A DNA stretch of 64,000 nt from Pocillopora damicornis (GCF_003704095.1 NW_020844150.1:1-64000), one strand, 5' to 3'; shown: positions 15,806 through 47,400, counted from the stretch's first letter. The notes: generated from the letters alone by a model not told the origin. Numbers and translations are program-made.

Positions 15806-16754
15806 TCTTTTCTCATTGGACGAGACTTCTTGGCAACACTTCTGCAGCGGTGAAGAAGGATGCGGAGGGCTTCTCGGTATATCGCAGGACTCGTCAAGCT
15901 TACACAAATGGATTAATTCCAATTTTGAGATGTATCAAAATAAGCATCATCAAACCCCATATAAATTCCTTTTCTGAAGCAAAACACAAAATTAGCACGA
16001 AAAGAAGCACGAAATTTAGACGCACAAAGCTACGCTATACATGGAAGTGTTTACCTCGCTCCGCTATTGTATTGATCTTTTTACGCGATAGTCCTCTGGC
16101 CATCTTTTTTCTTATAGCTCGATGCAACATAACGAAGATGCTGATATTGATGCCGACAAATACATAGCCTTGAATGACTGGGTAGTCGCGATGCAGAATA
16201 TCATACCATTGAAAAAACCAAATAATCCCAGAGCAAAGATATATTGCTAGCACAATTGAAAGCGCTTTTTTTCTCGTTACCAGACGTCCGTACTTAAGAG
16301 GAGAAGAAACTACACTGAACTGAGTCAAGGTAAAGGCGAAAATAGTTGAATTCGACGTCGTTATATAAAATTCGGTGAACGTTTGAAGAGCGTTTAATAA
16401 AGTTGTCAATTTGATTGAATATGGATGTTGAAGGTAAAGGAACACATAAAGTGTGGCCAAAACTGTTTCTTGTACCAAAGCTGTTAGCAGATCGGCTATA
16501 GCCAAACCAAGCAGAAAATAGGAAGTTGGGTTGCGGAACATCCTCAATGAATCGATATGAAGAACAAGGAGGAGAAAGCTATTGGCCACAATAGTGATAA
16601 GCGAGGCTATGAACATGAAAACTGCCGCGCTAAAGGCCACTTTGTAGAAATCTTAGTCCATTGGATTAAGCGTAAAACCGGGATGGAAATTGTCGAGGGT
16701 CACATTTCCAAAGGAATCGTTGATATTCGAATTCTCTGCAAACACAATCTCCAT
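15806..16754 (-). pseudogene. Divergent family B GPCR pseudogene
   Basis: GLAIADLLTALVQE and FTLTQF in ORF 16035..16640; after stops and frameshifts, TM7 reads LIHLKIGINPFV*A*R; candidate start MEIVFAENS at 16754. Confidence 0.85.
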
Positions 16755-19522
16755 AGAGGCATTTATGAGTTTGCTTGTCAAAGGATTGCTGTTAATGAAT
16801 CGTTTTGTGGTGATGTTAGTTTTTTCACAACAAACATGATTAAGTGATTAACAGTTTTACTGATTGAACCCATATGAATAGCAGTTCTACAAAAAAAATG
16901 TGTAACCAGCACAAATTCTTGAATGAAAAGAAGAGTAATATTTTTCCATCTAACAAGGAGACTTTTCATGGTAATTACTTCAAAAATAAACTTTTCAAAG
17001 GCACTTCTTTCAAAGGCCTCTAACAGACTTTTCACCAGCAGGAAGTCCTTGCTGACCCTGTTGATGCCAGCTGGCTTCCAATCGAAGGATTTTGAAATGC
17101 TTTCCGAGGCATAATTTGAAGTGAGGATTGGTAACTGAGTTGCCTGTCCAAAATAAAACTATCATTTGTCGGAAAAAGTCAACGTGATGACAAATCGTTT
17201 AATTATGCGAACTAATTTAACTTTCCTTGCGCTTTTCAAATTGTCCAATACTTAACTAGTTTACCTTTTTTGGTGGGAGCTGTTTTCTCATGGCACAATT
17301 GTCAATTTAGATACTCGCGACTGGTTGCTTTCGGAAACCTTGTGCAGCTTTTCTAGGTTATGTTCACTCCATGATATGACATTTTGTGAAATATTTTCTA
17401 GGTATGAAAAAAAGTCCTGGAGTGTTATACTCAATTGGACACCGAATTATGTTGTTTGAAGCACTAAATCAAGGTAATGACTCTGTTAATTGCTTTGTGT
17501 TTATTCTTGACTTGCTTCGTTTAGGTGTTCAAAAACAAAAGTGACATTTGCGCAAGGTAATAGGCCTATGGTTGGGTCCTCTTTCTCGCTCCAATCTCAT
17601 AGTACCCAGGTCTCTATATTTTGACACTTTCAGGAAGTTTGTTACGATCACGTAAAAAAACGGAAAGAAAAGCTATTCAATTCGGACAAACCATCGGGTC
17701 AGTCACCGATTGGTTCCCAGTTCTCATGTTTCCCTTACTCTGTAGAAGACAGCACCATGCAGTACTCTAACAGCACTCTAAGCCGGTCTTGCGATTAATC
17801 CACAGAGAGATCAAGTTACCGACTTAGTTATACTGATCTCCAGATTTTTCTAAAAATATAAATTTCTGTGTTTGTTTGTATTTTTCTTAAAATATATATT
17901 TCTGTGTTTGTTTTCTTAAACTGTGTGGTATTAGTTGAAACTTTGCGTGAGATTTTAAAATCAAAATTAATTAAAAGATTAATAGGCAATAGCAGAACTA
18001 AAAACACTGGTTAGTTTCCAGAATACTCCTCTAAATAGTTTGAATCACTCGTGTGAAAAAACCGACAATATTTCAAAATGAAGTATACCCTCTCTTGAAC
18101 TTTTCCAAGTTTCATTTTCTCATGTTTAAAATCAAAACCAGACACCGTCCAACATCGGGGTTTTCGTCTCAACTTTCTTTAAAAAAATTTCTTTTATTTC
18201 AATGGAAAAGTCTATTTCTCAATACGTTTTCTTATCTTTCCTTCGGCGTTGCTTGTGAATGTTAAGCAGTTTTACCGAAGTGTGCATCCAAACAAATCTG
18301 TTGAAAATGCTTCACTTTCTATGAATTTTTAAAATGTTCGTTCTTATGAATGATTAAGCTAAATGCTTACGGCTAATACTGAAAAGGTAGAAAAGCAAGA
18401 CGTGTGTGCTTGAGATTTCTCATTTCGTTGAGATAATATTCTAATGGATTGAATTGTGGTTGTAAAGTATCTATCAAGTAGTTTAAGGTAAAAATAAAAA
18501 TTACATATCATTCTACAATTTTTATGACGAGTGGATAGCTGACATGATTTGAAGATTGTCCTCTCCTTTTTTACCATATCTTTATTCAAAAAATACTCTT
18601 ATCTACCAATTGAGCTAAAAATTTCAATATATGCATATTTACTTGATTTTTTGACAAAATAGAAAAATAAATTGTTGTGGTAGCAGATTTTTCACTGCAA
18701 AGGGCTTGTTAGATTTGACAAGTTGGGAGGAAAAGTCTTTCTGCTAAATCTTGCACAAACCGTACCAATTTGTATATGGCAAATACCAGGACAGTTTCTG
18801 TTCAAGGAAATTTTCAGATTTTTGCAGCACAAATACATATCATTTTACTGTAACGAATTCAGAAATTCATTTTGAGAAAGAAACCATGGACTTATGTATC
18901 ACACTGGCAAATTCAAAATTTCTTCAATATCTCTAGTAGAGAAGAAAAGCCAGAAAAAAAAATACAATACACTTTCTTATTTCAATTATCGACTGTATTT
19001 ATGCACCTTTAGAGACTCTACGGGAGCACTCGGTTCAATTACGAAAATTTCTTCAAGTTCTGAACGGGAAAACAATTCGCAGCCCTTCGATGCCTCTCTC
19101 TTTGAATCAAACCGGCATGCAATAATAAAACACGCTCTTGCTTCCATGTAAAAACCTCAGAATGTATACCTTAATTGCAGTGAGTTTCATTTAGTTCAAA
19201 CATACAGCTGCGCAACGTGATAAAAGTTTGTCGAATTCGTGTGTGTGCTTTACACTTCTAGCTACTAGTGTAATTATTTCATAGCGGGAACTACATCTAC
19301 ATGTGAATTCTTTGGGGAAATCAATGAAGTATTCTTACGGTGGCTTTCCCACTGTCACAAACATTAACCAATTACCCTCCTTATAAGCACAACAATAATA
19401 ACCTAGAAAAAAGTTGATAGATTTGTCGATCACTTTAGTAACGGGCGAAATCAGTTAGACTTTCGTTCCGCTTGTTGTCAAGGTCAGTTGTGACACACCT
19501 TAAAATTGAACCAGCACCGAAA

Positions 19523-20623
19523 ATGGACTCTAAATCTCCGACGAAATGCAGTACTTCGATGAATTTCACCGGTAATTTATCACTTTGCCCAACTGTCCAA
19601 CCTGTACTGTTAGGACCCATGGTAAATCCATTTGACGAGTTTTACAAGTTTGCCTTCGGATCAGCAATTTACATTATCATCGTTTCCTTCATAACCATCT
19701 TAGCCAACGGTTTGTTACTTGTGGTTTTCTTCTTCGATCCATTGAAGATATTTCGCACTGCCACTACCTATTTCTTGATCGGTCTGGCCTTAGTGGATAT
19801 CTTAACCGCCGCCTCGCAAGAACCCATGTACGCTACATGCTTTATAATGATGTATCTTAGACATCCTGACACCCTAACAACGTGCACACCTCTTCTGAAT
19901 GTGGGCCAAGTGATAGCTGTTGCAGCCATGAATGCATCATTTCTGATAGTACTTGCTTTCACAATTACACAGTACATTGTGGTGGTCTCGCCGCTAAAAT
20001 ACGGCCGGCGCGTTACAAAATCGCGGGTGGTGATCTGTGTATTGGCCATATACGCGTATTCCATATTGTTCAGTCTCTTTCCTGTTATGGGCATCGCCGA
20101 AGAGATCGTGCAAAAGATCGATAACATTTTTCACTCCATTACTTTGGTCTACGTCACCATTATCTTTTACATTCTGCTGTACGTCGCCTTTAGGAAGAAA
20201 ATGGCTGCTTCTGAAAGTCTTCGAGAAGACAAGACCACACAAGCTAGAGGGAGAGAAAATAAACAAACAGGGGTGGAACGCAAGTTTATCATCGTCAATT
20301 TTCTCCTAATCGCCATCTTGTTTTTGACGTCTCAGCCGTCTGCCATTTTATGGATTTACCGCTTGTATTCCAACGAAAACCCCAACTCTCCAAGAGTTCT
20401 GATTGTCAATCTCATGGTGGCCGACAACCTACTTTACCTGAAATTCCTGCTCGACCCGTTTGTCTACGCATGGCGAATACCCAAATATCGACAGGCCCTA
20501 AAAAATGTCCTGCGCTGTGGCAGAGAGGAGCCTGAAACAACCTTTAGTGACCGCGTCATGGCCCAGGTTAGCAAGTCACGCGAGACTGTAGTGACCCTGG
20601 ACTTTAAAAGCATTCGGGACTAA
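19523..20623 (+). CDS. Intronless class A GPCR, family B divergent member B0 (about 366 aa)
   Basis: 7 TM; GLALVDIL, TITQY, LKFLLDPFVYAWR, helix 8 YRQAL; first in-frame ATG at 19523 (alternative MNFT at 19559). Confidence 0.92.
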   Translation: MDSKSPTKCSTSMNFTGNLSLCPTVQPVLLGPMVNPFDEFYKFAFGSAIYIIIVSFITILANGLLLVVFFFDPLKIFRTATTYFLIGLALVDILTAASQEPMYATCFIMMYLRHPDTLTTCTPLLNVGQVIAVAAMNASFLIVLAFTITQYIVVVSPLKYGRRVTKSRVVICVLAIYAYSILFSLFPVMGIAEEIVQKIDNIFHSITLVYVTIIFYILLYVAFRKKMAASESLREDKTTQARGRENKQTGVERKFIIVNFLLIAILFLTSQPSAILWIYRLYSNENPNSPRVLIVNLMVADNLLYLKFLLDPFVYAWRIPKYRQALKNVLRCGREEPETTFSDRVMAQVSKSRETVVTLDFKSIRD

Positions 20624-22308
20624 AACATTGATACTAGTTCGAGGTTGCCCATAGTTCTCTGCAAAATCTTAAGCCTCGCAAGCTTCTTATCCAATCTCGA
20701 GATCTTGATAACCTTTCTATAGTTTCGATCTCGATTTTATTTCAATTTCTTAGAGTCTAGTTCCAGAGGTTAGAGTAGCATTAACGTAATTTCGTGAGCA
20801 AGGAAATTAACTTTTAAATCACCTTCGTTTGAAATATTGTAGAACAGAAGCTGATAAATGGCAAAAATGAACGCAAATAGGAAAACCGCAAACATAATGC
20901 ACGATTTCTTTAATTTGTCATAAATAGCATATTGCAATAATCCTATAGAAGCGTAACAAGGGGTTGTGTTGATAAAATTATTCAGTCTCCGCCTGTGGTT
21001 TAAACAAGGACTTTGCTTCTCACGAGGGCAATCAGATGTGTCACATCATTCTTAGGAGGAGTATGGAAGATCACCAAATAGCGTCATGAAAGTTTTATCG
21101 CTCGTACCGCTGTATAACTGTGCCGATATATCACCATTTAAGTCAAGGCTTTATTGGCGTTATTTAACTTGATTATCTGCGCCTCTGGAAATGTTTAGCT
21201 ACTCCGAAAAATTGAATTGGTTTGTCAATGTAGACAAACCGACAGTTTTTTACTTAATTATCCCAGGCCCTAGGTAGCCCAAAGTAGACGAAAAACCGAC
21301 AAATTCAGTCGCTTTGTCGGCAACGACAAAACGATTTTTCTTCGCTTAATTTCGACAGGCGTATTTAAGGCTCAACACAGTATACTTTCACAGACAAAGT
21401 GACTACGGAAAAATTATCTTAGCACCGACAAACGGACTACAAATACTTTTAATCAAACGTTCTGTCGGGTGCATAGCAAGCCTGAAGAATTTAATTTCAG
21501 TTATTCACTTGAAATGAATAATAGCGCCTAACTCTTTTGGAAACTGAACAAATTGTTTTCCATATTTTTTTCTGTTATGTTTTAAAGGTTTAAGTACAAT
21601 TTTTCGTTTGCAAGATGTTTTTAATTTAAGTCTTCCCTCATACAATGCATTGGTAAAGATGGGGGCGGCAGTATTTTCTCTATACTGCAATAGTTATGAA
21701 ATTGTTTCTTCTCTTTTAGCGTGACAAACGTTGGGTCAGATTTACCCTTTGATACCTTTTCATTAAGCTTCTAGTTCACTGTAAATACATCCTTTTTTAT
21801 ATAGCTGAGAGCAAACATTCCTTGAAGTCCAATTTTCGCATCCTTCTAAGGTCTACTGTTTGAAAGAGAACTTCGATTATTTGGCATATGTCACTACTGC
21901 GAAATATCCAGATGGAAAATGAAATTCCCTGCTATGCTGAATAATCTGTTCTTCTTTGATCCCAACACGCGTGGGCCTCTACTGGAATAATTGAACCTTT
22001 TCCAAAAGGCGCAAACTCGGTGCAATTTTAAAACTAGAAGGCTTATCACACACCTAAGTTCTTAATAATGGCGAAACAGCGTCTCACGTCCATGGTAAAC
22101 AAATTATAAAATTAATTTTTATAAGGCACAAGGTTAATAAACGAATAGCAAAAGTGTTTTCACGCTGATAGGAAGGGAAAGTTTACCTTAGTTAATTAAT
22201 AGAAGTTCTATTGTAAAAGTAGAAATTCTCCCTCTGCATTGAACCACAAACTGAAGAGCTTGACCCTAACCACTAATTTTCTTTCGTGCCCTGATCATCA
22301 TTTTCAAG

Positions 22309-23478
22309 ATGAACTTCACTTGTGGAAATAATACGTTGCTCAACATAGGCGTTGATTATTTCAAAGAGCTACAACAGAGCCAAAAACCTTCAAATTCTTC
22401 AGTTTGCACCGGGGCAGCTGGCCTTGACTCACAGGAAGGGATGATGCATGTTGAGGAGTTTTCAAAGGCAGCTTTCGGCTCTTCCATCTTTATCATCATA
22501 GTTTCGCCCATGACAATCGTGGCCAACAGTTTGCTTCTTGTAACTTTTCTCGTCGATCCACTCAAGATTTTCCGCAACCCAACCAGCTACTTTCTCATCG
22601 GTTTGGCCATCGTGGATCTCCTAACGGCACTGATACAAGAACCTATCTATGCCACCTGTTTCATGTTGATGTATTTCCAGCATCCTTCGTGGACGAAATG
22701 TGAATCTTGGATGGAATTTGCATTCTATTTTTCAGCATTTCCAGTCTCAATATCGGCATCTATCGTTTTTGCCTTTACATTGACGCAGTACATCGTAGTT
22801 ACATCGCCTCTGAAGCTCGGCCGCATGATTACAAAGAAGAAAGCCTTACTTAGCGTTTTTGCTATATACCTCTATCATACGCTTTTCTGTTGTTTACCAC
22901 TGATGGGTATTCCACAGAAGACCAAACACGCCATTGACTTATTCTTTCACAGGTACGCTGTTGTTCTCGTCACCATCGTGGTATACATTATTCTGCATTA
23001 CACCATGAAAAAGAAAATGACCGCAGGGCGCTCACTCCAAAACGAAGGCTCATCCACTTCTCGCGAGGAGGGAAGACACGCTCAGGTGCAGCGAAGCTTT
23101 GTCCGTATAAATGTCGTTCTTCTCATTATTATGATCATGTTTTTCGTGCCTTCAGTTCTACTGATGACAATCAGATTTTTTCTGGACGACATATTTACTG
23201 CTCGGTATGGGATACGGGTTCTCGTTGTAAATTTGATGACCGACAACGTGCTTTACCTAAAATTTCTGTTTGATCCGATTGTGTACGCGTGGCGCATGTC
23301 CAAGTACAGGAAGTCTCTGAAAAGCACTGTTTATCGTAATAAAGATAAACAGTCCAGCAGAAGCGAAGGCGAGACTAAGATCACAGATGCAAGAGGTCAG
23401 ATAGGTGAGCTAACAAGTGCTGAACTGAACAAGTCAGCGATAACTTTACTCAGCTTCAAAAATGTCAGCACAGATTAA
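22309..23478 (+). CDS. Intronless class A GPCR, family B copy B1 (389 aa)
   Basis: N-glycosylation sequons at the N-terminus, GLAIVDLL, TLTQY, LKFLFDPIVYAWR. Confidence 0.93.
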   Translation: MNFTCGNNTLLNIGVDYFKELQQSQKPSNSSVCTGAAGLDSQEGMMHVEEFSKAAFGSSIFIIIVSPMTIVANSLLLVTFLVDPLKIFRNPTSYFLIGLAIVDLLTALIQEPIYATCFMLMYFQHPSWTKCESWMEFAFYFSAFPVSISASIVFAFTLTQYIVVTSPLKLGRMITKKKALLSVFAIYLYHTLFCCLPLMGIPQKTKHAIDLFFHRYAVVLVTIVVYIILHYTMKKKMTAGRSLQNEGSSTSREEGRHAQVQRSFVRINVVLLIIMIMFFVPSVLLMTIRFFLDDIFTARYGIRVLVVNLMTDNVLYLKFLFDPIVYAWRMSKYRKSLKSTVYRNKDKQSSRSEGETKITDARGQIGELTSAELNKSAITLLSFKNVSTD

Positions 23479-25796
23479 GGGTAGACCCTCTCCCATTTTG
23501 GTACACACGAGCGGTCATAACTGATGAAGCAGACGTCTCCTATGGATAGAGTTGAAACCATCACAACTGAGAAATTCACCGTGAATCGAACTCAGTGTTC
23601 TATTATCACGATAAAACTCATTAAAAAGGTACAACAAACTGGACTTCATTAAAACTTGGAATCGACAATATAACTCTTCGCCAGACTCTGAAGACTTTAG
23701 TGGAACAACGTTCATTGAGAGCGTGGTTGAGAAATCAAGCAGTTTGAGAACATGGTAATGACCACTAGTGAGAGTTTATGGAATAAAGAAAGGTCTCTGT
23801 TGAGCAGCCAAAGTCCGACTTTGACAATGAATAATATCCTCCCAACTTTAATTGCTTACAAACTCACATTTAACCTTGCTTAAATTGACGACACTGGAAG
23901 ACAAAGGAACTCAAATTGAACTCAAACATTTCTATTTTCTAAGACTAAATGATTTGATTCTTAGACCTGTGCTGCGTTTTTGCCTTTGTTTGGATTAACA
24001 CATGTTGGGTTCGCATCAATTTGCCTTTGCTCTCCAAAATTAAGCTTCTGGTTTTTCGCTTACTAAAGAAACATTTTGGCGATGTTATGATTGAAGTTTT
24101 ACTGAACGTTAGCAACTATTTACTTGACTGCAACATTTCACAATATAATGTTGCAAAAAGTATTAAAATAACTTAATATACATATAAANNNNNNNNNNNN
24201 NNNNNNNNNNNNNNNNNNNNNNNNNNNNNNNNNNNNNNNNNNNNNNNNNNNNNNNNNNNNNNNNNNNNNNNNNNNNNNNNNNNNNNNNTACATTAATCAG
24301 CAAACAGGTAATGAGAATATTCAAACTTATCAGGTAGAAGCTACTGTCTTGATCTAGCACCAAGTTCTCATACCTAATTTAAAAGGAGATGTGTAGCAGG
24401 TAGAGGGGAGAACTAACAATCAGATCTTGGGAGTTAAAGGGTTTAGAGGCGTGGGAATGTTCTCGTAAGTAAGATCCATAGCCACAAATTTTTCACCTCC
24501 TCTTTCCTGTTAGAACTTTTGTGTCAACAGAGTGTACTTCATATTTAATAGTGTTCGCAACAATTTTCAAAATTATGAAACTGTTAATGTATTGAGGTTT
24601 ATTTTGGTAGGCGTCTAAAGCCAAATGGTAAGAAAACCCCTCTTAGCAGATTAGAAACGATAAGACTGGGGAAAAAACGTCTTTTTTCTTGCTGGAGAGA
24701 AAGCCTAATTTTATGTCGTGAATTTGATGACACAAAGAAACAAAACGAGCAAAAAAGCTTTTTCCTCGGAAAGCAATGCTATCGATAATTTAAAAAATCT
24801 TGATGATGCGATTTTGAAACGTGTTTTGTTTAGAAAATTCTAGAATGTTCCGTTATTTACCTTGGTATTCGAGGTTATGCTGATACTTATTCCTGAATAA
24901 GATATGATGTAATCGAAAGGCCTTATATATTTCGTAAGGCATATCCCTATCACTGGAGCTCACATCAAGCTGTTTTTGTTTTCAATCGATAAGCTGACTA
25001 TATGGTTGTATATTACAGATTACAAAGGACCACTGGACATTTTATCAACAGCAATGACAAATATAAAGTGAAGTTTGGTTATTTAATTTATATGTATATT
25101 AAGTTATTTTAATACTTTTTGCAACATTATATTGTGAAATATTGCAGTCAAGTAAATGATTGCTAACGTTCAGTAAAACTTCAATCATAACATCGCCAAA
25201 ATGTTTCTTTGGTAAACGAAAAACCAGAGGTTTAATTTTTGAGAGCAAAGGCAAATTGATGCAAACCCAACATGTGTTAATCCAAACAAGGGCAAAAACG
25301 CAGCACAGGTCTAAGAATCAAACCATACAGTCTTAGAAAATAGAAATATTTGAGTTCAGTATGAGTTCCTTTGTCTTCCAGTGTCGTCAATTTAAGGAAG
25401 GTTAAATATGAGTTTGTAAGCAATTCAAGTTGGGAGGATGTTATTCATTGTCAAAGTCGGACTTTGGCTGTTCAACAGAGACCTTTCTTTATTCCATAGA
25501 CTCTAACTAATGGTCATTACCATGTTCTCAAACTGCTTGATTTCTCAACCACGTTCTCAACGAACGTTGTTCCACGTAAGTGTTCAGAGTTTGGTGAATA
25601 GTTGTATTGTCAATTGAAAGTTTTAATGAAGTCCAGTTTGTTGTACCTTTTTAATGAGTTTTATTTTGATGATAGAACACTGAGTCCTATTCACGATGAA
25701 TTTCTCAGTTGTAATGGTTTTAACTCCATCCATAGGAGATGTCTGATTCATCAGTTATGACCGCTTATGTGTACCAAAAAGGGAGAGGGTCTACCC

Positions 25797-26885
25797 TTAA
25801 TCTGTGCTGACATTTTTAAAGCTGAGTAAAGTTATCGTTGACTTGTTCAGTTCAGCACTTGCCAGCTCACCTACTTGACCTCTTGTATCTGTGAGTTTAG
25901 TCTCGTTTTCGCTTCTGCTGGACTCTTTATCTTTATTACGATAAGCAGTGCTTTTCAGAGACTTCCTGTATTTGGACATGCGCCACGGGTACACAATCGG
26001 ATCAAACAGAAATTTTAGGTAAGCAGGTTGTCGGTCATCAAATTCACAACGAGAACCCGTATCCCATTCCGAGCAGTAAATATGTCGTCCAGAAAAAATC
26101 TGATTGTCATCAGTAGAACTGAAGGCACGAAAAACATGAGATGAGCCTTCGCTTTGGAGTGAGCGCCCTGCGGTCATTTTCTTTTTCATGGTGTAATGCA
26201 GAATAATGTATACCACGATGGTGACGAGAACAACAGTGTACCTGTGAAAAAATAAGTCGATGGCGTGTTTGGTCCTCTGTGGAACACCCATCAGAGGTAA
26301 ACAACAGAAAAGCGTATGATAGAGGTATATAGCAACAACGCTAACTAAGGCTTTCTTCTTTGTAATCATGCGGCCGTACTTCAGAGGCGATGTAACCACG
26401 ATATAGTGCGTCAATGTAAAGGCAAAAACGATAGATGCCGATATTGAGACTGGAAATGCTGAAAAATGGAATGTAAATTCCATCCAAGATTCACATTTCG
26501 TCCACGAAGGATGTTGGAAGTACATCAGCATGAAACAGGCGGCATAGATAGGTTCTTGTATCAGTGCTGTTAGGAGATCCACGATGGCCAAACCGATGAG
26601 AAAGTAGCTGGTTGGGTTGCGGAAAATCTTGAGTGGATCGACGAGAAAAGTTACAAGAAGCAAACTGTTGGCCACGATTGTCATGGGCGAAACTATGATG
26701 ATAAAGATGGACGAGCCGAAAGCTGCCTTTGAAAACTCCTCAACATGCATCATCCCTTCCTGTGAATCAAGGCCAGCTGCCCCGGTGTAAACTGAAGAAT
26801 TTGAAGGTTTTTGGCTCCTTTGTAGCTCTTTGAAATAATCAACGCCTATGTTGAGGAAGGTATTATTTGCACAAGTCAAGTTCAT
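25797..26885 (-). pseudogene. Family B copy B2: open 362-aa ORF with TM6 destroyed
   Basis: Versus B1: 80-nt deletion after GSS plus a 1-nt deletion before YLKF; frame is restored but the middle segment is off-frame; TQY>THY. Confidence 0.8.
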
Positions 26886-30183: not shown

Positions 30184-30439
30184 ATGAAATTGACTTGTGC
30201 AAATTATTCCTTGCTCAACATAGGCGTTGATTATTTCAGAGATCTACAACAGAGCTGAAAACTTTCAAATTCTTCAGTTTGCACGGGGGCAGCTGGCCTT
30301 AATTCACAGAAAGATGATGATGCGTGTTGAGGAGTTTTCAAAGGTAGCTTTCGGCTCGTCCATCTTTATCATCATAGTTCCGCCCATGACAATCGTGGCC
30401 AACGGTTTGCTTCTTATAACTTTTCTCGTCGATCCACTG
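30184..30439 (+). pseudogene. Family B copy B3, 5' fragment
   Basis: MKLTCANYSLL.. frameshifted, TM1 to VDPL, then joined to sequence equivalent to about 37065 (about 1.24 kb deleted). Confidence 0.88.
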
Positions 30440-32521: not shown

Positions 32522-32940
32522 TCACTCTATTGGCAAAGTTTTGAAGCTGGACAATGTTATTGCCGATTGGTTGAGTTCAGTTGTTGATCTCTCAATTCCG
32601 GTCAGCTTGCTCTCCCCGCCGATATCTTTGTGGGGACAATATATTTTTCCGAAAGAATCACGGTAGTTAAGCATGCGCCAAGCGTACACAATCGGATCTA
32701 ATAGAAATTTCAGGTAAAGCAGGTTATCGCTCATCAAATGAAGGAACGAAAAACATGATCATAACAATGAGAAGAACGACATTTAAACGGAGAGAGCTTC
32801 GCTGCACCTTAATGTGTCTTCCCTCTTCGCGAGAAGTCGAAGAGCTTTCGTTTTGGAGTGACCATCCTGCGGCCATTTTCTTTTCCATGGTGTAATGCAG
32901 AATTATGTACACCACGATGGTAACGAGAACAACAGTGCAC
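32522..32940 (-). pseudogene. Family B copy B4, 3' half only
   Basis: TVVLVTIVVYIILHY...SDNLLYLKFLLDPIVYAWR...SAITLSSFK, with an internal deletion. Confidence 0.88.
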
Positions 32941-35569
32941 CTCAGGCGGTGCGCGCACTCTGATTGCGTTGCATCATGGTCGTAAAACGAAAAGCGAGTC
33001 ATTTACATCCTGTCGTGGTCGAGCGAACATCTCTGGTGGCAGGAAGATAGCGCGAATGAACGTGGAATGTAATGGGGATTCACTGCCTGTTGCCATTCCT
33101 TCCAAAGTTAAAAATTTTTGGCAGGCCTGCGCGACTCCTGTCATTCTGTGGGGCAATTGAAGAGATTCAGAAAGAATCGAAACTGCAGCCTTGCCCAAGA
33201 ATCTATTCATTTGGCAGCAGTTACACTCATAGCCGATGGCTGTGTGAATAATATAAAATTATAAAATCGCAAGTTATTTAACAGGGAGCCAACCTTTGAC
33301 ATGCAAACTCATTAAAACTCAAACTGATTTATGGTTTAAGGCATCAAAAGGGCGTGGGAAATGATCTGGCGAGTAATCGAAAGTACTTCGCACTCGGAAA
33401 TATATTTTTTGAATGGTTAAGTCTGCTGCTGACAACCCCTTGAGTTCACATGTCTCAGTTGTCTTAGTGATGCGTTCGTATAACTTTTGAGTTATTATTG
33501 AGATTACTTCTTGATTCCCGGAGGCAAAGTTTGAAGTAATCACCTCCCTCTCAAATAATTTCTCTCTCAGACAGTTGCTCTCGTTTCGAGAAAACATATA
33601 AATGCTGTAATTGCCCCAGCTATCATCCAAAGAAATAATGTTACACCAATTGCAAAAAATTAATTGTAGCTCATCGCTCTGAAAAAGAACCCCATAAATT
33701 ACCCTGAATAGCTGCGAAAAGTGTAAGCCTAATCTAATATGTAAAATATTAGATCTCGATAACCTTTCTATAGTTTCGAACTCGATTTTCTTTCAATTTC
33801 TTAGAGTCTATTTCAAGAGAAGATTAGAGTTGTATTAAGGTAATTTCATGAGCAAAGATAGTCACTTTTTGATCACCTTCGTCAGTTTGAAATATTGCAG
33901 AACAGAAGATGGTAAATCGCAAAAATGAACATAAATAAGAGAACCGCAAACACAACGCGCGATTTCCTTGTCACGAAATATATATTGCAATATTGTTATA
34001 GAAAGAACGGTCGTGGCAAGGAGTTGTGTGAATAAAATTGTTCAGTTTCCGCCGGTCTCTTGTGCTTTGAACGAGGGCTCTGCTACTCATGAGTGCAATC
34101 AGATGTGCGCATCACTTCTTAGGGGGGAATTTGGCAGTGTCGTGGTATGGAAGATCACCAAATAGCGTCAAGAAAATTTTATTGCTCGTACTGCTGTATT
34201 ATTGTGCCCATATATATCATCATTTAAGTCAAGACCTTATTAACGTTGTTTGACTTGATTATTTGCGCCTCTGGAAATGTACACCTGCTCTGAAACATTG
34301 AATTGGTTTGTCAATGCAGGCAAGCCGACAGTTTTTGACTTAATTACCCTAGGCATTAGGTAGCCCAAAGTAGACGAAAAACCGGCAAATGCGGTTGCTT
34401 TGCGGTACCAACAAAATGATTTTTCTTGGCTTAATTTTCGACTGACATATCCAAGGCTCTATACAGTAACCTTTCAAAGACAAAGTGACTACCGACCAAT
34501 TCTCATAGCACCGACAAACAGACTACGAATACTTACAATGACGAATCAAACGTTCTGTCGAGTGCAAAGCAAGCCTGAAGAATGTAATTTCAGTTATTCA
34601 CTTGAAATGAATAATAGCGTTGGAAAACGAATTGTCATCCATACTTTATCCCTTAGGTTCTTAAAGTTCAAATACAATATTTAATCAACGCGATATTCTT
34701 AATTAAAGTCTTCCCTCCTACAATGCATTAGTAAAGGTGAGGGCGGCAGTATTTTCTCGTCGTTATATCCTTTATACAGGCGCAGTTTTGTTATTTGCGG
34801 ACACACTATATAGGATGTTTTTATACCACAATCGTGACAATGTTGGGTCAGGTTTACCCTTTGATACCTTTTCACTACGCTCCTTGTTTACTGTTAATAC
34901 ATCTTTAATTTTGTAAATAGCTGAGTATAAGCATTCATTAAAGTCCAATTTCCGTATCCTGCTAAGGTCTACTGTTTGATAGAGCTTTTCAAATATTTGG
35001 TATTTGTCACTCTGCGAAATATCCAAATGGAAAATGAAATTCCCTGCTATGCTGAATAATCTGTTCTTCTTTGATCCCAACACGTGCGGGCCTTCACTGA
35101 AATAATTCAACTTCTTTCAAAAGGCACAAATTCGGTGCATTTTCAAAATTGAGAGGCTTATCACATCGTTCGATAAAATACTTGGCTTGATGGCTATGTC
35201 TAAGTTCGTAATAATGGCGATACAGCGTCTCATGTCCATGGTACACAAATTGTAAAATTAATTTTAATGAGTTATATAAACGAAAAACAGGTTAATAAAC
35301 GAATAGGGAAAGTGTTTTCACGCTGATAATTAACTGAATTCTCGGAACAACTATTCAGGAGAAGACATTCATGGAAAGTTAAATACAATGTAGTAACAAT
35401 GCATAGGGAAGGTCTTACGGTTAATTCAGCTTGGAGGGGAAAGTTTCCCTTGGTTAATTAACACAAGTTCTATTATAAAAGCGGGAATTCTCCCTCTGCA
35501 TAAAATAATAAACTGAAGAACTTGGCCCTAACCACTGCTTTTCTTCGCGTGCTGATCATCATTTTTGAA

Positions 35570-36739
35570 ATGAACCTGACTTGTGCAAATTATTCCTTGC
35601 TCAACATAGGCGTTGATTATTTCAAAGAGCTACAACAGAGCCAAAAACCTTCAAATTCTTCAGTTTGCACGGGGGCAGCTGGCCTTAATTCACAGAAAGA
35701 GATGATGCATGTTGAGGAGTTTTCAAAGGCAGCTTTCGGCTCGTCCATCTTTATCATCATAGTTTCGCCAATGACAATCGTGGCCAACAGTTTGCTTCTT
35801 GTAACTTTTCTCGTCGATCCACTCAAGATTTTCCGCAACCCAACCAGCTACTTTCTCATCGGTCTGGCCATCGTGGATCTCCTAACAGCACTGATACAAG
35901 AACCTATCTATGCCACCTGTTTCATGCTGATGTACTTTCAGCATCCTTCGTGGACGAAATGCGAATCTTGGATGAAATTTGCAGCGTATTTTTCGGCATT
36001 TCCAATCTCAATATCGGTATCCATCGTTTTTGCCTTTACATTGACACAGTATATCGTGGTGGCATCGCCTCTGAAGTACGGCCGCATGATTACAAAGAAA
36101 AAAGCTTTCATTGGCGTTGTGGCTCTATACCTCTATCACACGCTTATCTGTTGTTTACCTCTAATGGGTGTTCCACAGAAGACCATGGACGCCATCGGCT
36201 TATTTTTTTACAACTACGCAGTTGTTCTTGTTACCATCGTGGTATACATTATTCTTCATTACACCATGAAAAAGAAGATGACGGCAGGGCGCTCACTCCA
36301 AAACGAAGGCTCATCCACTTCTCGCGAAGAAGGAAGACACGTTCAGATGCAGCGAAGCTTTGTCCGTTTAAACGTCGTTCTTCTCATTATTATGATCATG
36401 TCTTTCCTGCCTTCAATTATACTCATGACAATCAGATTTTTTCTGGACGACATATTTACTGCTCGGTATGGGATACGGGTTCTCGTTGTAAATTTGATGA
36501 CCGATAACCTGCTTTACCTGAAATTTCTGTTAGATCCGATTGCTTACGCGTGGCGCATGTCCAAGTACAGGAAGTCTCTGAAAAGCACCGTTTATCGTAA
36601 TAAAGATAAAGGGTCTAGCAGAAGTGAAAACGAGACTAAAATCACAGATGCAAGATGTCAGATAGGTGAACTGGCAAGTGCTGAACTGAACAGGTCAGCG
36701 ATAACTTTACTCAGCTTTAAGAATGTCAGCACAGATTAA
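35570..36739 (+). CDS. Intronless class A GPCR, family B copy B5 (389 aa)
   Basis: Full-length paralog of B1; ATG at 35570 (MNLTC). Confidence 0.93.
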   Translation: MNLTCANYSLLNIGVDYFKELQQSQKPSNSSVCTGAAGLNSQKEMMHVEEFSKAAFGSSIFIIIVSPMTIVANSLLLVTFLVDPLKIFRNPTSYFLIGLAIVDLLTALIQEPIYATCFMLMYFQHPSWTKCESWMKFAAYFSAFPISISVSIVFAFTLTQYIVVASPLKYGRMITKKKAFIGVVALYLYHTLICCLPLMGVPQKTMDAIGLFFYNYAVVLVTIVVYIILHYTMKKKMTAGRSLQNEGSSTSREEGRHVQMQRSFVRLNVVLLIIMIMSFLPSIILMTIRFFLDDIFTARYGIRVLVVNLMTDNLLYLKFLLDPIAYAWRMSKYRKSLKSTVYRNKDKGSSRSENETKITDARCQIGELASAELNRSAITLLSFKNVSTD

Positions 36740-39257: not shown

Positions 39258-39655
39258 TCACTCTATTGGCAAGGTTTTGAAGCTGAACAACTTATTGCCG
39301 ATTGGTTCAGTTCAGTTGTTGATCTCTCAATTCCGGTCAGCTTGCCTTCCCCGCCGATATCTTTGTGGGTACAATATATTTTTCCGAGAGAATCACGGTA
39401 TTTAAGCACGTGCTACGCGTAAACAATCGGACCCAACAGAAATTTCAGGTAAAGCAGGTTATTGCTCATCAAATGAAGGCACGAAAAAACATGATCATAA
39501 TAATGAGAAGAACGACATTTAAACGGAAAGAGCTTCGCTGCACCTTAATGTGTCTTCCGACTTCGTATTGGAGTGACCATCCTGCAGCCATTTTCTTTTC
39601 CATGGTGTAATGCAGAATAATGTATACCACGATAGTAACGAGAACAACAGTGCAC
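39258..39655 (-). pseudogene. Family B copy B6, 3' half only
   Basis: Paralog of 32522-32940 with the same 5' breakpoint (gtgcacctcaggcgg) and the same TM6-TM7 deletion. Confidence 0.88.
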
Positions 39656-39994
39656 CTCAGGCGGTGTGCGCACTCTGATTGCGTTGCATCATGGTCGTAA
39701 AACGAAAAAGCGAGTCATTTACATCCTGTCGCGGTCGAGTGAACATCCCTGGTGGCAGCAAGATAGCGCGAATAAACGTGGAATGTAATGGGGATTCAGT
39801 GCCTGTTGCCATTCCTTCCAAAGTTAAAAATTTTTGGCAGGCTTGCGCGACTCCTGTTATTCCTCCGTGACAAATTCGTTGTTAGGAGGCAACTGAAGAG
39901 ATTCAGAAAGAATCGAAACTGCAGCCTTGCCCAAGAATCTATTCATTTGGCAGCAGTTACGCTCACAGCCGATGGTTGTGTGAATAATATAAAA

Positions 39995-41159: not shown

Positions 41160-42329
41160 ATGAACTTGACTTGTGCAAATTATTCCTTGCTCAACATGGG
41201 CGTTGATTACTTCAAAGAGCTACAACAGAGCCAAAAACCTTCAAATTCTTCAGTTTGCACAAGGGCAGCTAGCTTTAATTCACAGAAAGAGATGATGCAT
41301 GTTGAAGAGTTTTCAAAGGCAGCTTTCGGTTCGTCCATTTTTATTATCATAGTTTCGTCCATGACAATCGTGGCCAACAGTTTGCTTCTTGTAACTTTTC
41401 TCGTCGATCCACTCAAGATTTTCCGCAACCCAACCAGCTACTTTCTCATCGGTTTGGCCATCGTGGATCTCCTAACAGCACTGATACAAGAACCTATCTA
41501 TGCCACCTGTTTCATGCTGATGTACTTTCAGCATCCTTCGTGGACGAAATGTGCACCTTGGATGGAATTTGCATCTTATTTTTCGGCATTTCCAATCTCA
41601 GTATCGGCATCTATCGTTTTTGCCTTTACATTGACGCAGTATGTCGTGGTGGCATCGCCTCTGAAGTATGGCCGCATGATTACAAAGAAGAAAGCTTTCA
41701 TTAGCGTTGTGGCTCTATACCTCTATCATACGCTTATCTGTTGTTTACCTCTAATGGGTGTTCCACAGAAGACCATGGACGCCATCGGCTTATTTTTTTA
41801 CAACTACGCTGTTGTTCTCGTTACCATCGTGGTATACATTGTTCTGCATTACACCATGAAAAAGAAGATGACCGCAGGGCGCTCACTCCAAAACGAAGGT
41901 TCATCCACTTCTCGCGAGGAAGGAAGACACGTTCAGGTGCAGCGAAGCTTTGTCCGTTTAAACGTCGTTCTTCTCATTATTATGATCATGTCTTTCCTGC
42001 CTTCAGTTATACTCATGACAATCAGATTTTTTCTGGACGACGTATTTACTGCTCGGAATGGGATACGGGTTCTCGTTGCAAATTTGATGACCGATAACCT
42101 GCTTTACCTGAAATTTCTGTTAGATCCGATTGTCTACGCGTGGCGCATGTCCAAGTACAGGAAGTCTCTAAAAAGCACTCTTTATCGTAATAAAGATAAA
42201 GAATCCAGCAGAACTGAAAACGAGATTAAAATCACAGATGCAAGATGTCAGATAGGTGAGCTGGCAAGTACTGAACTGAACAGGTCAGCGATAACTTTAC
42301 TCAGCTTTAAAAATGTCAGCACAGATTAA
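41160..42329 (+). CDS. Intronless class A GPCR, family B copy B7 (389 aa)
   Basis: Full-length paralog, closest to B5. Confidence 0.93.
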   Translation: MNLTCANYSLLNMGVDYFKELQQSQKPSNSSVCTRAASFNSQKEMMHVEEFSKAAFGSSIFIIIVSSMTIVANSLLLVTFLVDPLKIFRNPTSYFLIGLAIVDLLTALIQEPIYATCFMLMYFQHPSWTKCAPWMEFASYFSAFPISVSASIVFAFTLTQYVVVASPLKYGRMITKKKAFISVVALYLYHTLICCLPLMGVPQKTMDAIGLFFYNYAVVLVTIVVYIVLHYTMKKKMTAGRSLQNEGSSTSREEGRHVQVQRSFVRLNVVLLIIMIMSFLPSVILMTIRFFLDDVFTARNGIRVLVANLMTDNLLYLKFLLDPIVYAWRMSKYRKSLKSTLYRNKDKESSRTENEIKITDARCQIGELASTELNRSAITLLSFKNVSTD

Positions 42330-42470
42330 GGGTTGACCCTCTTCCATTTTGGTGCACATTAGCAGTCATAAATGATGAATCAGACATCTCCCATGGATAG
42401 AATTGAACCCACCACAACTGAGAAATTTACCGCGAGTCGAACGCAGTGCTCTATCATCACAATAAAACTC

Positions 42471-42680: not shown

Positions 42681-44362
42681 ATATGTACAACGGTGTCACT
42701 AAAAACTAGTGTTGATCGAGTAAGAATTAGGCAGTACATCAATCGTTTGTTGAATTTCGGTTAGATAGGAGAACAGTTTAGGATTTCACCCAAAGCGCCG
42801 CTCAAAGAAGTGTAGCTGAGAAATTTACCACAGGAATCTCAAATCTGTTAACCAAAGCTTATTTATAATAGCTGGTTAATTTTACCAAAGTAACGGAAGA
42901 GAATGTCAAATCAAGCAACGACATAAGCTTCATGTTTTTAAGATAAACAAGTTTTAACAATTGTGATTCAGAAAATACTGTAAACATGTATATTTAACGT
43001 TCAATTCCAGAGCACCCAAACATTATGATAAATATCAAAGAGGATAGTCACGTAATGGCATAAGATGAATATGAATGGATAGAAAATGACTCGGTGGTTA
43101 TGTTTGAAGACTTTTTTCGCAAATGTCCGTACCCAATGTCATTTAAGAAGATTTTTTATTTATAGCCTTTTTTCGCGAATTTCTGACATGCGTGGTCCTC
43201 ATCTCCAGAAGTTATATTGAATTGGCCTTTTTCAGAAAATGTTAGTTTGAGGGTCATTAGTGCTGTGGCAAAGTTTCATGCTTTTATCATTAATTTGAAC
43301 AATTTTGGTCGATAACCGCTAGACTACATAGGGTATGCCTCATACAATAAAGAATACGCACAAATACGCATCAGCACGAACGCCATTTTTAACAAAATAC
43401 ATGTTTCAAAATCAAATCATCAAGATTTGTGACATTAACAATAGCATTGCTTTCGGAGGAAAAAGCTTCTTGGATCGTTTAAGAAATCTAAATTGTTTGT
43501 TTGTGTCATTAAATTCACGACATATAAATAGGCTTTCTCTCCAGCAAGGAAATAAACGAGCTATTCCCATCCTTATCGTTTCTAATCTGCTATGAGGGGT
43601 TTTCTTGCCATTTGGCTTTCGACGACTACCAAAATAAACCTCTATACATTAAACAGTTCCACAATTTTGGAAATTGTTGTCAACACTATTAAAAATGGAG
43701 TACATTCTGTTTACACAAACGTTTTTAGCGGGAAAGAAGTGGTGAAAAAATTTGTAACTATGGAACTTAATCGCGAGAACATTCCCACGCCTCTTAAACC
43801 AAAGAAAATCAAACTGCCTCAGGAGCTATAAAAGATGTTGGCCTTCGAGTACTTATCAGCTTCGGCCCGCATTTATAAAACATTAGCATAGTTGAGTCAA
43901 ACTGCTCAAAATAATTCATAGTCTGCTTTGTACCATGCAAAATCCCCCAAAATGAGTGGTAAGATATATAAAGACGCTTCTCGTAATTGATCTTTTCGTC
44001 TGTATGCTATATTTGCTCACGGTATTTAATTACTTATCGGACTTTCACAGCGGTGGTCCCATCTGAGTAGTCAATATCTTCGAGGAAAATATTTTAGATC
44101 ATTCCCCTTCTATTTGTTTTAAGACGTCCGTAAAATTACTTCACTCTCATCTATATCTGTCTTGAATGATCAACTCTCGGTTGAGTATCCTTGAGTCTAC
44201 CTCATTTTGCAGTTTTCTTAGAAATTATTTCATGTTACATCTCAGCTATTCTTAGAATGACTTGTGTTTTGCCAGCGGGATTTAAAGCAATCACCTGGCC
44301 CTCCATGAAAAGTTCTCTCTCAAATAATCGCTCTCCTTTGAAACATGAAAAGGGATGGGAAT

Positions 44363-45122
44363 AATCTTATTGTCATGAGTATAACCTAAGGCACAAATAA
44401 CACGATCATAATGAGAAGAACGACATTTAAACGGACAAAGCTTCGCTGCACCTTAATGTGTCTTCTCTCTTCGCGAGAAGTCGATGAGGTTTCGTTTTGG
44501 AGGGACCATCCTGTAGCCATTTTCTTTTTCATGGTGTAATGCTGAATAACGTATACCTCGATGGTGATGAGAACAACAGCGTAGTCGTGAAAGAATAAGT
44601 CGATGGCGTCTTTGGTCTTCCGCGGAACACCCATCAAAGGTAAACAACAGATAAACGTGTGATAGAGATATACTGCAACAACGCTAACGAAAGCTTTCTT
44701 CTTTGTAATCATGCGGCCGTACTTCAGAGGCGATGCCACCACGAAATACTGCGTCAATGTGAAGGCAAAAAGGATGGATGCCGATATTGAGACTGGAAAT
44801 GCCGGAAAATGACCTGCAAATTCCAGCTGAGGAGCACAATTTCTCCTCGAAGGATGCTGAAAGCAAAAAAAGTTACAAGAAGCAAGATGTTGGCCAGGAT
44901 TGTCACGGGCGAAACTATGATGATAAAGATAGACGAACCAAATGCTGTTTTGGAAAAACTTTCAACATGACCCATCGCGTGCGCTGAAATAACGGAACTC
45001 GGTACAATGCTTGCAACTGAAAGGTTGTCATTGAATACGGATTCATTTAACAGGTTTGGAATTGGTTACCTTCAAGAATTTTTGCCAAAGCTAAAGTGGG
45101 AGTTGTTGCATGTGGCATTCAT
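44363..45122 (-). pseudogene. Family B copy B8 (N-terminus to TM6, internal deletion, 3' truncated)
   Basis: MNATCNNS.., HVESFSKTAFGSSIF, TQYFVVASPLKYG; TM2 deleted; ends after VP*VILMTIR. Confidence 0.88.
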
Positions 45123-46304
45123 CCTTTTCCTAGCCTGGTCATGCAAACCCAGCGTAGTAAATAAATTTCTGCGGCGTGATTAGCAGATCTACGGAAACCG
45201 TTGGTTTATAAGGTGTTTATGTCATGCAATCGATGTTAAAAGAAGGCCGCTGTTAAACCGTTGCATATTTAACAGTGGCCAGTAGGAGAAGAGATAGATA
45301 TTTGTTCACACTGATGGTTCAGCAGGAGAGAAATGGAAATTCTTTTTCGCTGAGGGTCTTACTCGTCAAAACATTTCCCACGCCTTTTTATCTCTAAAGC
45401 CATAAAGAATGAAACTTTCTTAGAGGAGATATCCAAAATGTTATCCTGCATGATCTTCAAGGGATCCTCCGAGTGTTAAAATAATGTCAGCTCCAACTTC
45501 TTTTAAGACGTAATCGAAAGTACGTCACACCGAGCAATATCTTTCATAGATGGTAAACTCCACATGTTACAGTTGTCTTAATAACACTTTCGTATTATTT
45601 TTGAGTTATATTGGAATTATACTTCTTGATTTTCGCGAGCAAAATGTGAAGTAATCACCTCCCTCGTAAACAGTTTCGCTCTCAAAAAGTTGGTTTCATT
45701 TCGAGCAGACAAATGAATGCTGTAATTGCCCCTGTTAGCATCCAAAGAAATAATGTTAGACTAGTTAAATTATCGCTCGTCGTTCTGAAAAAGAACCACA
45801 AAAATATCCTAAACAGCAGCGAAAGGTGTAAGGCTAATCTAATATGTAAAATATAGTAAAGCTTATTTTCGACGAATAGATGGAGCGCATTCAGGATGGT
45901 TGAAACGTTTGGCTTGGTTCTTCTCTCCAAATTTTCTCATTTCACCCATGCATTATATGCATGGGTGAATAATATTATAATGTTGCAATTTAATTAATAA
46001 ACGATGAAGGGTTTTAGTAATAGGTGGTCCAGGGTAAAGCATGTCTATGTTTCTCAAAATGTAAAGGATTCTTGTCACGTATTTCATTGTTGAGCGCCAT
46101 CAATGTGGTTTAACCGCTAAGACAGCGCTGAAATCCATATTTCTATTTCTGAAGACTTTGGAAATCATAGATAGTCTTGGTTGTAATTCTAGCTTCCTCG
46201 CAAGTCCTTTGCGCAGACTGAGGGGATACTTGGAGGGTCCACACCCACTAAGCAACCCCGCCCAACGAGCCTGCCGCTTGGCTTCAAACTATTCAATTCC
46301 AGTC

Positions 46305-47400
46305 TTATTCCGTGTACACAGTTTTGAAGGTGAGCAATGTATTATTAATTCTTATAACTTATTCAATTCTATTACTGAACTCTCCTTTCCAGCCAAGCTG
46401 CTCTCTCTCTGCCGATATCCTTCTAGCGACAAAATATTCTTCTCAGAGACTCACGGTACTTCGGTATGCGCCACACGTATACAACCGGGTCTAACAGGAA
46501 TTTCAGGCAAATCAAATTATCGGCCATCAAATTTACTATTTGAACCTTTATTGCACAAGCACCGAATAAGCCCTCCATGAGAAATCTCATTGTCAAGAGT
46601 ATGATCGAAGGCACGAAAGACACGATCAAAATAATAAGAAGGAAAAAATTTACACGTACAACGCTTCGCTGCACCTTCATATGTCTTCCTTCCTCGCGAG
46701 AAGTCGATGAGCTTTCATTTTGAAGCTACAGCCATTTTCTCTTTCGTAGTGTAATGCAAAAAATGTACACCATGATGGTGATGAGAAAACGGTGTAACTG
46801 TGAAGAAATAAGTCGATGGCCTCTTTGGTCTTCTGTGGAACACCCATCAGAAGTAAAGAACAGTTGAGTGTATGATAACCATCTATTGCACCAACCTTAA
46901 TGAAAGCTTTCTTCTTTGTAATCATGCAGCCGTACTTCAGAGGCGATGCAACTACGATATATTGCATTAATGTGAAGGCAAAGACAATTGATGGTGATAT
47001 AGAGACGCAAAACTCTGAAAAATAATGCCCAAATCGCATCCAAGCAACAAATTTTGATGACGAAGGATGTTGAAAGTACAGGAGCATGAAACAGGTGGCA
47101 TAAGTAGGTTCTTTTACCAATCCAGTACGGAGATCTACTATGGCCGAACCGATGAGAAAGAATGTGGTAGGGTTGCGAAAAATTTTTATTGGATCCAGAA
47201 GAAAAGTTCCGAGAAGCAAACTGTCGACCAGGATTGTGAAGAGCGAAACCACGACGTGATGGATGACGCAGAAGCTGCTTTGGTTCAACGCAAATGGCCG
47301 ATCGATTTTCACCAAATATAACTTCATTTAACAGGCTTAGTTGCCTCAATGAATTAGTGCCAAAGTGAATGCGAGGGTTATTACGAGTGTCGTTCCTCAT
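46305..47400 (-). pseudogene. Family B copy B9, full length, frameshifted
   Basis: LDPIKIFRNPT, LMQYIVVASPLKYG, MADNLICLKFLLDPVVYVWR, C-terminal TLLTFKTV split over three frames. Confidence 0.9.

Follow-up and report, generated by a model that had tools for sequence, protein, structure and literature searches.

Basic sodium-pocket residues in class A receptors

To date, a lysine or other basic residue in the sodium pocket has been described in several class A (rhodopsin-like) G-protein-coupled receptors (GPCRs), whose residues we number by the established Ballesteros-Weinstein convention. Here we describe a clade of cnidarian receptors, represented by a tandem cluster at 15.9-47.3 kb of a 64,000-nucleotide stretch of Pocillopora damicornis DNA (GCF_003704095.1 NW_020844150.1:1-64000; this whole stretch is called the window), in which a lysine at 7.45 is combined with loss of the DRY arginine at 3.50. 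In human GPR75, the K7.45 amine sits in the middle of the Na+ pocket, and the apo receptor is described as active-like with a collapsed pocket and the K7.45A substitution as abolishing expression (bioRxiv 10.1101/2025.07.30.667585). In human DP1 it is K2.54 that takes the Na+ position, bridging D2.50, excluding Na+ in simulations and swinging to the agonist on activation, a switch that required protonation of D2.50 in the simulations, as described (PMC12508460, PMC12146711). R3.50 is typical of class A but not universal, as DP1 is without it: DP1 has C3.50, S6.48, D7.49 and F7.53, yet couples to Gs, with E3.49 contacting G-alpha-s, and restoration of R3.50 is described as lowering its basal activity (PMC12508460, PMC12146711).

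Basic residues at or near this site are also found in other settings. Chemokine receptors carry H7.45 or R7.45, with only three described as having Arg, and H7.45 still coordinates Na+ in simulations (PMC6037435), while the arginines engineered into M4 (N7.49R) and M2 (S3.39R) are described as mimicking Na+ and stabilizing the inactive state (PMC7055379). In the DP1 and GPR75 papers, a sodium-pocket lysine is called unique or unparalleled (PMC12508460, PMC12146711, bioRxiv 10.1101/2025.07.30.667585). Each ingredient of the coral design is therefore known, with K7.45 in GPR75, a pocket lysine with R3.50 loss in DP1 and a basic 7.45 in chemokine receptors, and the coral receptors show a genuine variant of an already known mechanism at the scale of a whole clade, apparently not described before.

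The tandem cluster and its motifs

Four class A GPCR genes of the cluster, each of a single exon, are intact, and a further seven copies are broken or reduced to fragments, with both strands occupied (TM, transmembrane helix; aa, amino acids; ORF, open reading frame):

15873..16709, minus strand: diverged pseudogene with in-frame stops; TQF; HLKIGINPF from 15932 (K7.45 with N7.49)
19523..20623, plus strand: intact GPCR gene, 366 aa, single ORF; TQY at nt 19967; K7.45 codon 20441-20443; S6.48
22309..23478, plus strand: intact paralogue, 389 aa, single ORF; TQY at 22783; K7.45 codon at 23260
25797..26885, minus strand: copy of the 22309 gene, inverted and damaged; THY; 362-aa ORF open, but out of frame and deleted from TM6 to the start of TM7
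30184..30439, plus strand: 5' fragment, N-terminus to TM1; stop and frameshift
32534..32942, minus strand: 3' fragment, TM5 to C-terminus, frameshifted; YLKFLLDP retained
35570..36739, plus strand: intact paralogue, 389 aa, single ORF; TQY at 36044; K7.45 codon at 36521
39275..39657, minus strand: 3' fragment, TM5 to C-terminus, frameshifted; YLKFLLGP
41160..42329, plus strand: intact paralogue, 389 aa, single ORF; TQY at 41634; K7.45 codon at 42111
44353..45122, minus strand: pseudogene; TQY; deletion of the TM2 region, TM6 interrupted by a stop, without TM7
46399..47264, minus strand: pseudogene; MQY; TM5 frameshift; CLKFLLDP retained

These receptors have a class A fold. All four intact genes match Pfam 7tm_1 at 44-57 bits (cut-off 30.5), and the predicted model of the 19523 protein has seven helices plus helix 8 (predicted local distance difference test score, pLDDT, 76), with a Foldseek probability of 1.0 to class A structures. 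In a fold comparison of this model (VIA), CB2 gave a Z of 26.9 and a root-mean-square deviation of 3.2 over 282 aligned residues, tied with many others. The class A anchors are likewise present in an alignment of 124 rows, made up of the four window genes and 120 listed of 236 homologues (N1.50 in 119, D2.50 in 119, P6.50 in 121, P7.50 in 120 and Y7.53 in 118).

The motifs reported in a first-pass annotation of this DNA are all confirmed where it placed them. As it stated, TQY replaces DRY in all four intact genes, and the damaged copies read TQF (15.9-16.7 kb), THY (25.8-26.9 kb), TQY (44.4-45.1 kb) and MQY (46.4-47.3 kb). TM7 of the intact genes reads DN[LV]LYLKFL[LF]DP[FI][VA]Y, with D7.49 and with K7.45 encoded by AAA, and D2.50 and S3.39 are both kept; in the 19523 protein, these four residues are D311, K307, D92 and S139. 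The lysine of the clade profile aligns without gaps to N7.45 of CB1 and MC5R, its glutamine to R3.50, and the lysine column is also gap-free on N7.45 of coral sister receptors, so the 7.45 numbering is correct. Loss of the motif in homologues had been named as grounds for abandoning the idea; instead, chance can be set aside for it, as the 124 rows keep Q3.50 in 121, K7.45 in 116, D7.49 in 115, D2.50 in 119 and S3.39 in 121. Arginine is found at 7.45 in six rows, two of which are truncated and misaligned; the natural K7.45R variants are P0020, P0063, P0066 and P0067, three of the four with N7.49.

Other parts of that annotation need narrowing. HLKIGINPF is indeed present in the pseudogene at about 15930, however, its lysine, pointed out there as kept, reflects inheritance and not function. 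W6.48 is lost as claimed, the 19523 gene having S and its three intact paralogues F at this position, but this is not specific to the family, because Trp6.48 is missing in the DRY-bearing sister receptors as well. D7.39 and the QEP of TM2 are present in the window genes but are features of subfamilies, with D7.39 in 55, E2.58 in 73 and Q2.57 in 14 of the 102 clade rows defined below.

The three 389-aa genes are recent duplicates (synonymous divergence, dS, 0.12-0.21; nonsynonymous to synonymous ratio, dN/dS, 0.24-0.37) and are about 44% identical to the 366-aa gene, of which a different contig carries a copy at 87% identity (dS 0.21, dN/dS 0.32). With dN/dS at 0.24-0.37 across the four measurable close pairs, the coding sequences indicate that the window paralogues are under purifying selection. 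Inverted copies of about 93% identity (window 21825-27376 and 28144-28969) flank both 100-N gaps (24189-24288 and 28511-28610) and may be alternative haplotypes joined in scaffolding, inflating the copy count; the damaged copy at 25.8 kb, which lies beside an assembly gap, may for this reason be a haplotype artefact.

A single clade older than the coral/sea-anemone split

The family extends well beyond the window. A search of the 234-Mb genome gave 113 matches in all, and among the best 40 of those outside the window, which were fetched, 15 are intact ORFs with K7.45 and without R3.50, one more is truncated and the rest are without K7.45. Apart from the 87% copy, the 15 ORFs are about 27-42% identical to the 19523 protein; together with the four window genes, they give P. 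damicornis at least 19 intact family members. When two other clade members served as queries against the genome, these loci again came out on top. The named close homologues listed are from the stony corals Oculina, Orbicella, Desmophyllum and Stylophora.

Searching 1.84 billion representatives with a profile added 147 new proteins, 91 of them with complete motif columns. Among these 91, 71 combine K7.45 with a residue other than arginine at 3.50, none combines K7.45 with R3.50, 19 have R3.50 without K7.45 and one has neither. In a 152-row tree, all K7.45 rows fall on one branch, with a Shimodaira-Hasegawa-like approximate likelihood ratio test (SH-aLRT) value of 96, or 91 without the trait columns. 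An 83-row tree with the trait columns dropped, from which four long-branch rows and near-duplicates were left out, separates 51 clade rows from 32 others (bootstrap 100, SH-aLRT 98); the median pairwise identity of these 51 selected rows is 29%. These trees indicate that the K7.45/non-R3.50 receptors form one clade, whose nearest relatives are N7.45, DRY-bearing coral receptors. On the co-occurrence of Q3.50 and K7.45, which the first-pass annotation proposed to survey in cnidarian proteomes, K7.45 accompanies R3.50 in none of these 91 proteins, however, because all K7.45 rows form one branch, the co-occurrence stems from one evolutionary event. Repeated co-evolution of the two residues is rejected on the same ground.

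By name, the clade members are from stony corals, Nematostella (XP_032219169.2 among them) and Actinia. The latter two were the sole named organisms inside the clade in a profile word search with 20 matches, five of 30 looked-up clusters had a name, all Nematostella, and the atlas matches were mostly cnidarian clusters. Since Nematostella and Actinia have members in it, the clade is older than the split between corals and sea anemones.

Several groups within and around the clade depart from the common pattern. The earliest-branching subclade has N2.50, K7.45 and D7.49, keeps D3.49 and has H, S, Y, L, A or N at 3.50, and from these residues may show an intermediate stage; N2.50 + K7.45 + D7.49 subclades include L011, L014, L015, L017 and related proteins. 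A second, independent group without R3.50 in the same genome (L028, L030, L031 and L033 on G000:C4221) has C3.50 in the motifs ACF, TCD, TCY and ACY, is without K7.45, has N/S/E-type pockets and is nested among DRY receptors. Arginine loss therefore does not require the lysine. L036 (G000:C1546:253950-255400) is a long branch outside the clade with H2.50, R7.45, T7.49 and a retained ERL, and is possibly another basic-7.45 solution, with the alignment there being unsure. The long-branch protein P0262 has Q3.50 with N7.45 and N7.49 and is placed outside the clade, in an uncertain position.

Relatives among solved structures and the opsin question

Counts within the clade are given from here on for 102 clade rows from outside the window, compared where stated with 44 rows outside the clade. 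The best solved structures for the clade profile are CB1 (E 6e-28) and MC5R (2e-27), with aminergic receptors also top-ranked, so that by both profile and fold the nearest solved structures are the cannabinoid, melanocortin, adenosine and aminergic receptors of the alpha branch of class A. Cannabinoid and melanocortin receptors resemble the clade in having neither C3.25 nor P5.50; all four types, however, have DRY and N7.45 and are only about 15-21% identical to it. The melanocortin TM3 aspartates of the calcium/peptide site, which we take to be positions 3.25 and 3.29, are unmatched, with the MC5R aspartates aligning to non-acidic consensus residues in the profile alignment. R3.50, which defines DRY-type receptors, is found in none of the 102 rows, and the prevailing residues at 7.40 and 2.54 differ from the R7.40 that binds the ligand carboxylate in prostanoid receptors and from the K2.54 of DP1.

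Several homologues are automatically named melanopsin-like, and an invariant TM7 lysine with acids nearby could suggest an opsin-like photopigment in which K7.45 binds retinal. The best single-sequence match in the PDB is a spider opsin (E 4e-10), and squid rhodopsin ranks third by Foldseek in a near tie. The retinal-binding lysine K296 that characterizes opsins, however, is at 7.43, as described (PMC8097283, PMC10512536), where the clade has F (50), Y (29) or L (14 of 102), and the clade lysine stands five residues before P7.50 while that of the spider opsin stands seven before. Additionally, CB1, MC5R and aminergic receptors head the profile ranking, whose 60 listed matches include no opsin, the closest relatives, in gap-free alignment and in trees built without opsins, are DRY/N7.45 coral receptors, and the clade has no C3.25-ECL2 cysteine pair (ECL2, extracellular loop 2). 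We reject the opsin reading, which we consider extremely improbable, on register and nearest relatives; since the lysine is at 7.45 and not 7.43, the melanopsin-like database names are unsupported.

Conservation of the sodium pocket and a proposed built-in cation

K7.45 is among the top three columns by conservation of those scored in the clade, being found in 98 of the 100 ungapped rows (the exceptions are one R and one Q), and S3.39 (101/102) and D7.49 (93/99) are similarly constant. By contrast, D2.50 is kept in just 74 of 102 rows and replaced by N in 24. Outside the clade, 41 of the 44 rows have N, S or T at 7.45, 39 have R3.50 and 35 have N7.49, and because N7.49 prevails there, K7.45 and D7.49 arise on the same branch. 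In TM7, 7.45 and 7.49 are low-entropy polar columns amid hydrophobic ones. The combinations at 2.50/7.45/7.49 are D/K/D in 65 rows, N/K/D in 24 and D/K/N in four, and N2.50 together with N7.49 is found in none of the 102, a pattern that, at the level of these residues, fits a lysine in need of an acidic partner.

From this conservation and from the described precedents, it is likely that K7.45 acts in the sodium pocket as a fixed cation. Our preferred reading, to which we give slightly more credence than doubt, is DP1-like: K7.45 would be a built-in cation, the receptors are predicted to be Na+-independent and they would likely activate G proteins without Arg3.50. In a first step, the K7.45 amine would pair with D7.49 and/or D2.50 and S3.39, in what is elsewhere the Na+ site, with D7.49 being the more constant partner (93/99 against 74/102). 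The salt bridge would then hold the resting state, taking over from Na+ and from the R3.50 lock that the clade lacks, a part that K2.54 plays in DP1. The interpretation in the first-pass annotation is in this way partly supported: its tethered-cation idea fits the conservation and has direct precedents in GPR75 K7.45 and DP1 K2.54 as these are described.

DP1 and the clade, as far as the former is described, share a natural lysine, replacing Na+ in DP1 and predicted to do so in the clade, in an otherwise kept pocket, D2.50 with D7.49, the absence of R3.50 and W6.48 and a tolerated F7.53. The DP1 lysine, however, is at 2.54 and described as unique to one receptor that keeps E3.49 and the prostanoid R7.40, whereas in the clade the lysine is at 7.45, 2.54 is G (76) or A (22), 7.40 is mostly N (33), D (16) or L (15) and the design is common to all members. 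We infer that the likeness arose by convergence. As described, M4 N7.49R and M2 S3.39R are similar to the proposed coral design in that D2.50 and S3.39 are linked by a basic side chain standing in for Na+, but they are artificial and lock the receptors inactive, while the coral lysine is natural and under selection. Chemokine receptors, by their description, share a clade-defining 7.45 change in the sodium site but belong to another branch.

The same triad could be read as a proton sensor, in which protonation of D2.50 or D7.49 at low pH would free K7.45 and so switch the receptor on with no organic ligand involved. The lysine is flanked by two buried aspartates in 65 of 102 rows, and the lysine switch of DP1 needs D2.50 protonation in the simulations described (PMC12508460, PMC12146711). 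However, the 24 rows with N2.50 speak against such gating, which we hold to be very unlikely. Among proton-sensing receptors, GPR4/65/68 have E4.53 as their third acidic residue; this position is S or H in the window genes, a further point against it. A bolder version is that the clade, with about 20 genes per coral genome, swapped out both Na+ and the DRY arginine before the coral/anemone split, that K7.45/D7.49/D2.50 form a proton-gated switch proof against seawater Na+ and that the receptors signal by a path foreign to R3.50 receptors, with an unusual G-alpha interface or no G protein. We regard this as unlikely; if true, corals would own a pH- or amine-sensing receptor family with its own activation chemistry.

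The intracellular side and G-protein coupling

R3.50 is absent from all 102 rows and Q3.50 is present in 90, the other residues being H, S, Y, L, A and N; 3.49 is mostly T, S, V or A, with D/E3.49 in only about 10. The coupling side is otherwise kept, with P34.50 in 99, Y5.58 in 74, Y/F7.53 in 96 and R/K6.31 in 94 of 102, R8.51 in 95 of 98, helix 8 and basic ends of TM5 and TM6. It is established that P34.50, Y5.58 and helix 8 have roles in G-protein coupling. Judging by these residues, the retained proline of intracellular loop 2 (ICL2), Y5.58 and helix 8 favour G-protein coupling: on activation, the intracellular cavity would open and Q3.50, Y5.58, the ICL2 proline and helix 8 would engage a G-alpha subunit.

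Loss of R3.50 throughout and the scarcity of D/E3.49 could mark receptors uncoupled from G proteins, serving as decoys, scavengers, arrestin-only receptors or heterodimer partners; such uncoupling is known from atypical chemokine-type receptors whose DRY motif is altered. We think this improbable, considering that Q3.50 is itself conserved, that P34.50, Y5.58 and helix 8 persist together with the basic TM5-TM6 ends and that DP1 is described as coupling to Gs despite lacking R3.50 (PMC12508460, PMC12146711). The first-pass annotation proposed non-canonical or no G-protein coupling and an uncharacterized signalling class. It is half right on coupling, in that R3.50 is unusable for it, but DP1, without R3.50 and W6.48, activates Gs and the clade keeps coupling features, so that 'no coupling' is unsupported; a new signalling class is overstated, since the mechanism has precedents among solved structures.

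The outer pocket, ligands and resting activity

Facing outwards, the clade has D5.42 in 80, H/N5.46 in 99, E2.58 in 73 and D7.39 in 55 of 102 rows, no D3.32 and a very short ECL2. Under the DP1-like reading, the agonist, a small molecule or peptide that is likely cationic and held in this acidic pocket (D5.42, H/N5.46, E2.58, D7.39), would break or shift the K7.45 bridge. For the trace amine-associated receptors (TAARs) of fish, recognition of amines through Asp5.42 is described (PMC4695389). Our TM5 numbers are taken from P5.50 of the sister receptors and could be off by one where the clade lost a residue.

GPR75, compared by its description, shares the lysine at 7.45 and the absence of W6.48, but it keeps R3.50 and is self-activated by ECL2, whereas the coral clade lacks R3.50 and has D7.49 and a very short ECL2. 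The active-like apo state of GPR75 (bioRxiv 10.1101/2025.07.30.667585) raises an alternative in which K7.45 in a collapsed pocket would disfavour the inactive state, and the receptors, freed of the R3.50 lock, would signal tonically, tuned by expression or inverse agonists. The lower basal activity described for DP1 on R3.50 restoration points the same way (PMC12508460, PMC12146711), as does the lack of P5.50 and W6.48 in the clade. However, ligand detection is suggested by the conserved polar residues of the pocket (D5.42, H/N5.46, E2.58) and by the number of diverged paralogues, at least 19 per genome, and a pocket cation is described as stabilizing the inactive state in DP1, M4 N7.49R and M2 S3.39R (PMC12508460, PMC12146711, PMC7055379). 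Such constitutive activity therefore seems to us rather unlikely.

A number of observations weigh against the DP1-like reading itself. Because unliganded GPR75, the one precedent found with its lysine at 7.45, is active-like and its K7.45A mutant is not expressed, the clade lysine could have a structural role or work in favour of the active state. The absence of N2.50 with N7.49 is weak evidence, because D7.49 changes only about five times on the tree. In 84 of 102 rows, F or V stands where canonical pockets have S7.46, so this bulk may have reshaped the sodium pocket. On the intracellular side, the E3.49 grip that DP1 uses on G-alpha-s is absent in most members, 31 of 102 rows have F7.53 in place of Y and 34.51 frequently holds His and not a bulky hydrophobic residue. 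The cationic ligand is the weakest step, a guess that pocket residues and the fish TAAR analogy suggest, and D5.42/H5.46 occur in sister receptors too. Finally, four RNA runs gave only short, low-depth contigs: two (X7, X8) cover 7 of 30 bins at low depth, mostly coding regions, and two (X1, X3) cover 19/30 and 22/30 bins, intergenic ones included.

Significance, previous descriptions and neighbouring genes

With the clade, a lysine at a sodium-pocket position is seen fixed over a large group (about 29% median identity) along with loss of R3.50. It supplies dozens of natural variants (D/N2.50, Q/H/S3.50, Y/F7.53 and rare R7.45) on which one could test which state, resting or active, is favoured by a cation in the pocket and by what means G proteins are engaged when R3.50 is lacking. 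In the biology of corals, this is an orphan receptor family whose melanopsin-like and melanocortin-like database names lack the support of defining residues. We found no description of this cnidarian clade in full-text literature, a search that stopped short of subscription papers and supplements and in which the 'K7.45' query is weak as residue numbers intervene. Nor is it described in passages of cnidarian and placozoan GPCR or opsin papers (PMC8097283, 10.1101/2025.04.18.649542, PMC9897584, PMC10512536, PMC11087051, 10.1101/2024.10.30.621027); the Nematostella members may be present, as orphans without a name, in the cluster files of PMC11087051.

The window also contains a second tandem cluster on the plus strand (989-15977), of short class A GPCRs (about 282 aa) with ERY and N7.45 that belong to a different clade:

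989-1837, plus strand: ERY/N7.45 cluster, intact
9998-10840, plus strand: ERY/N7.45 cluster, intact
13313-14179, plus strand: ERY/N7.45 cluster, intact
~3320-3851, plus strand: ERY/N7.45 cluster, broken
~6024-6881, plus strand: ERY/N7.45 cluster, broken
~15546-15977, plus strand: ERY/N7.45 cluster, broken

The ERY/N7.45 and TQY/K7.45 families are also neighbours on G000:C1156 (L065). Further along the window, a 160-aa ORF at 57456-57938 (plus strand) has no Pfam match and is probably an exon of another gene.

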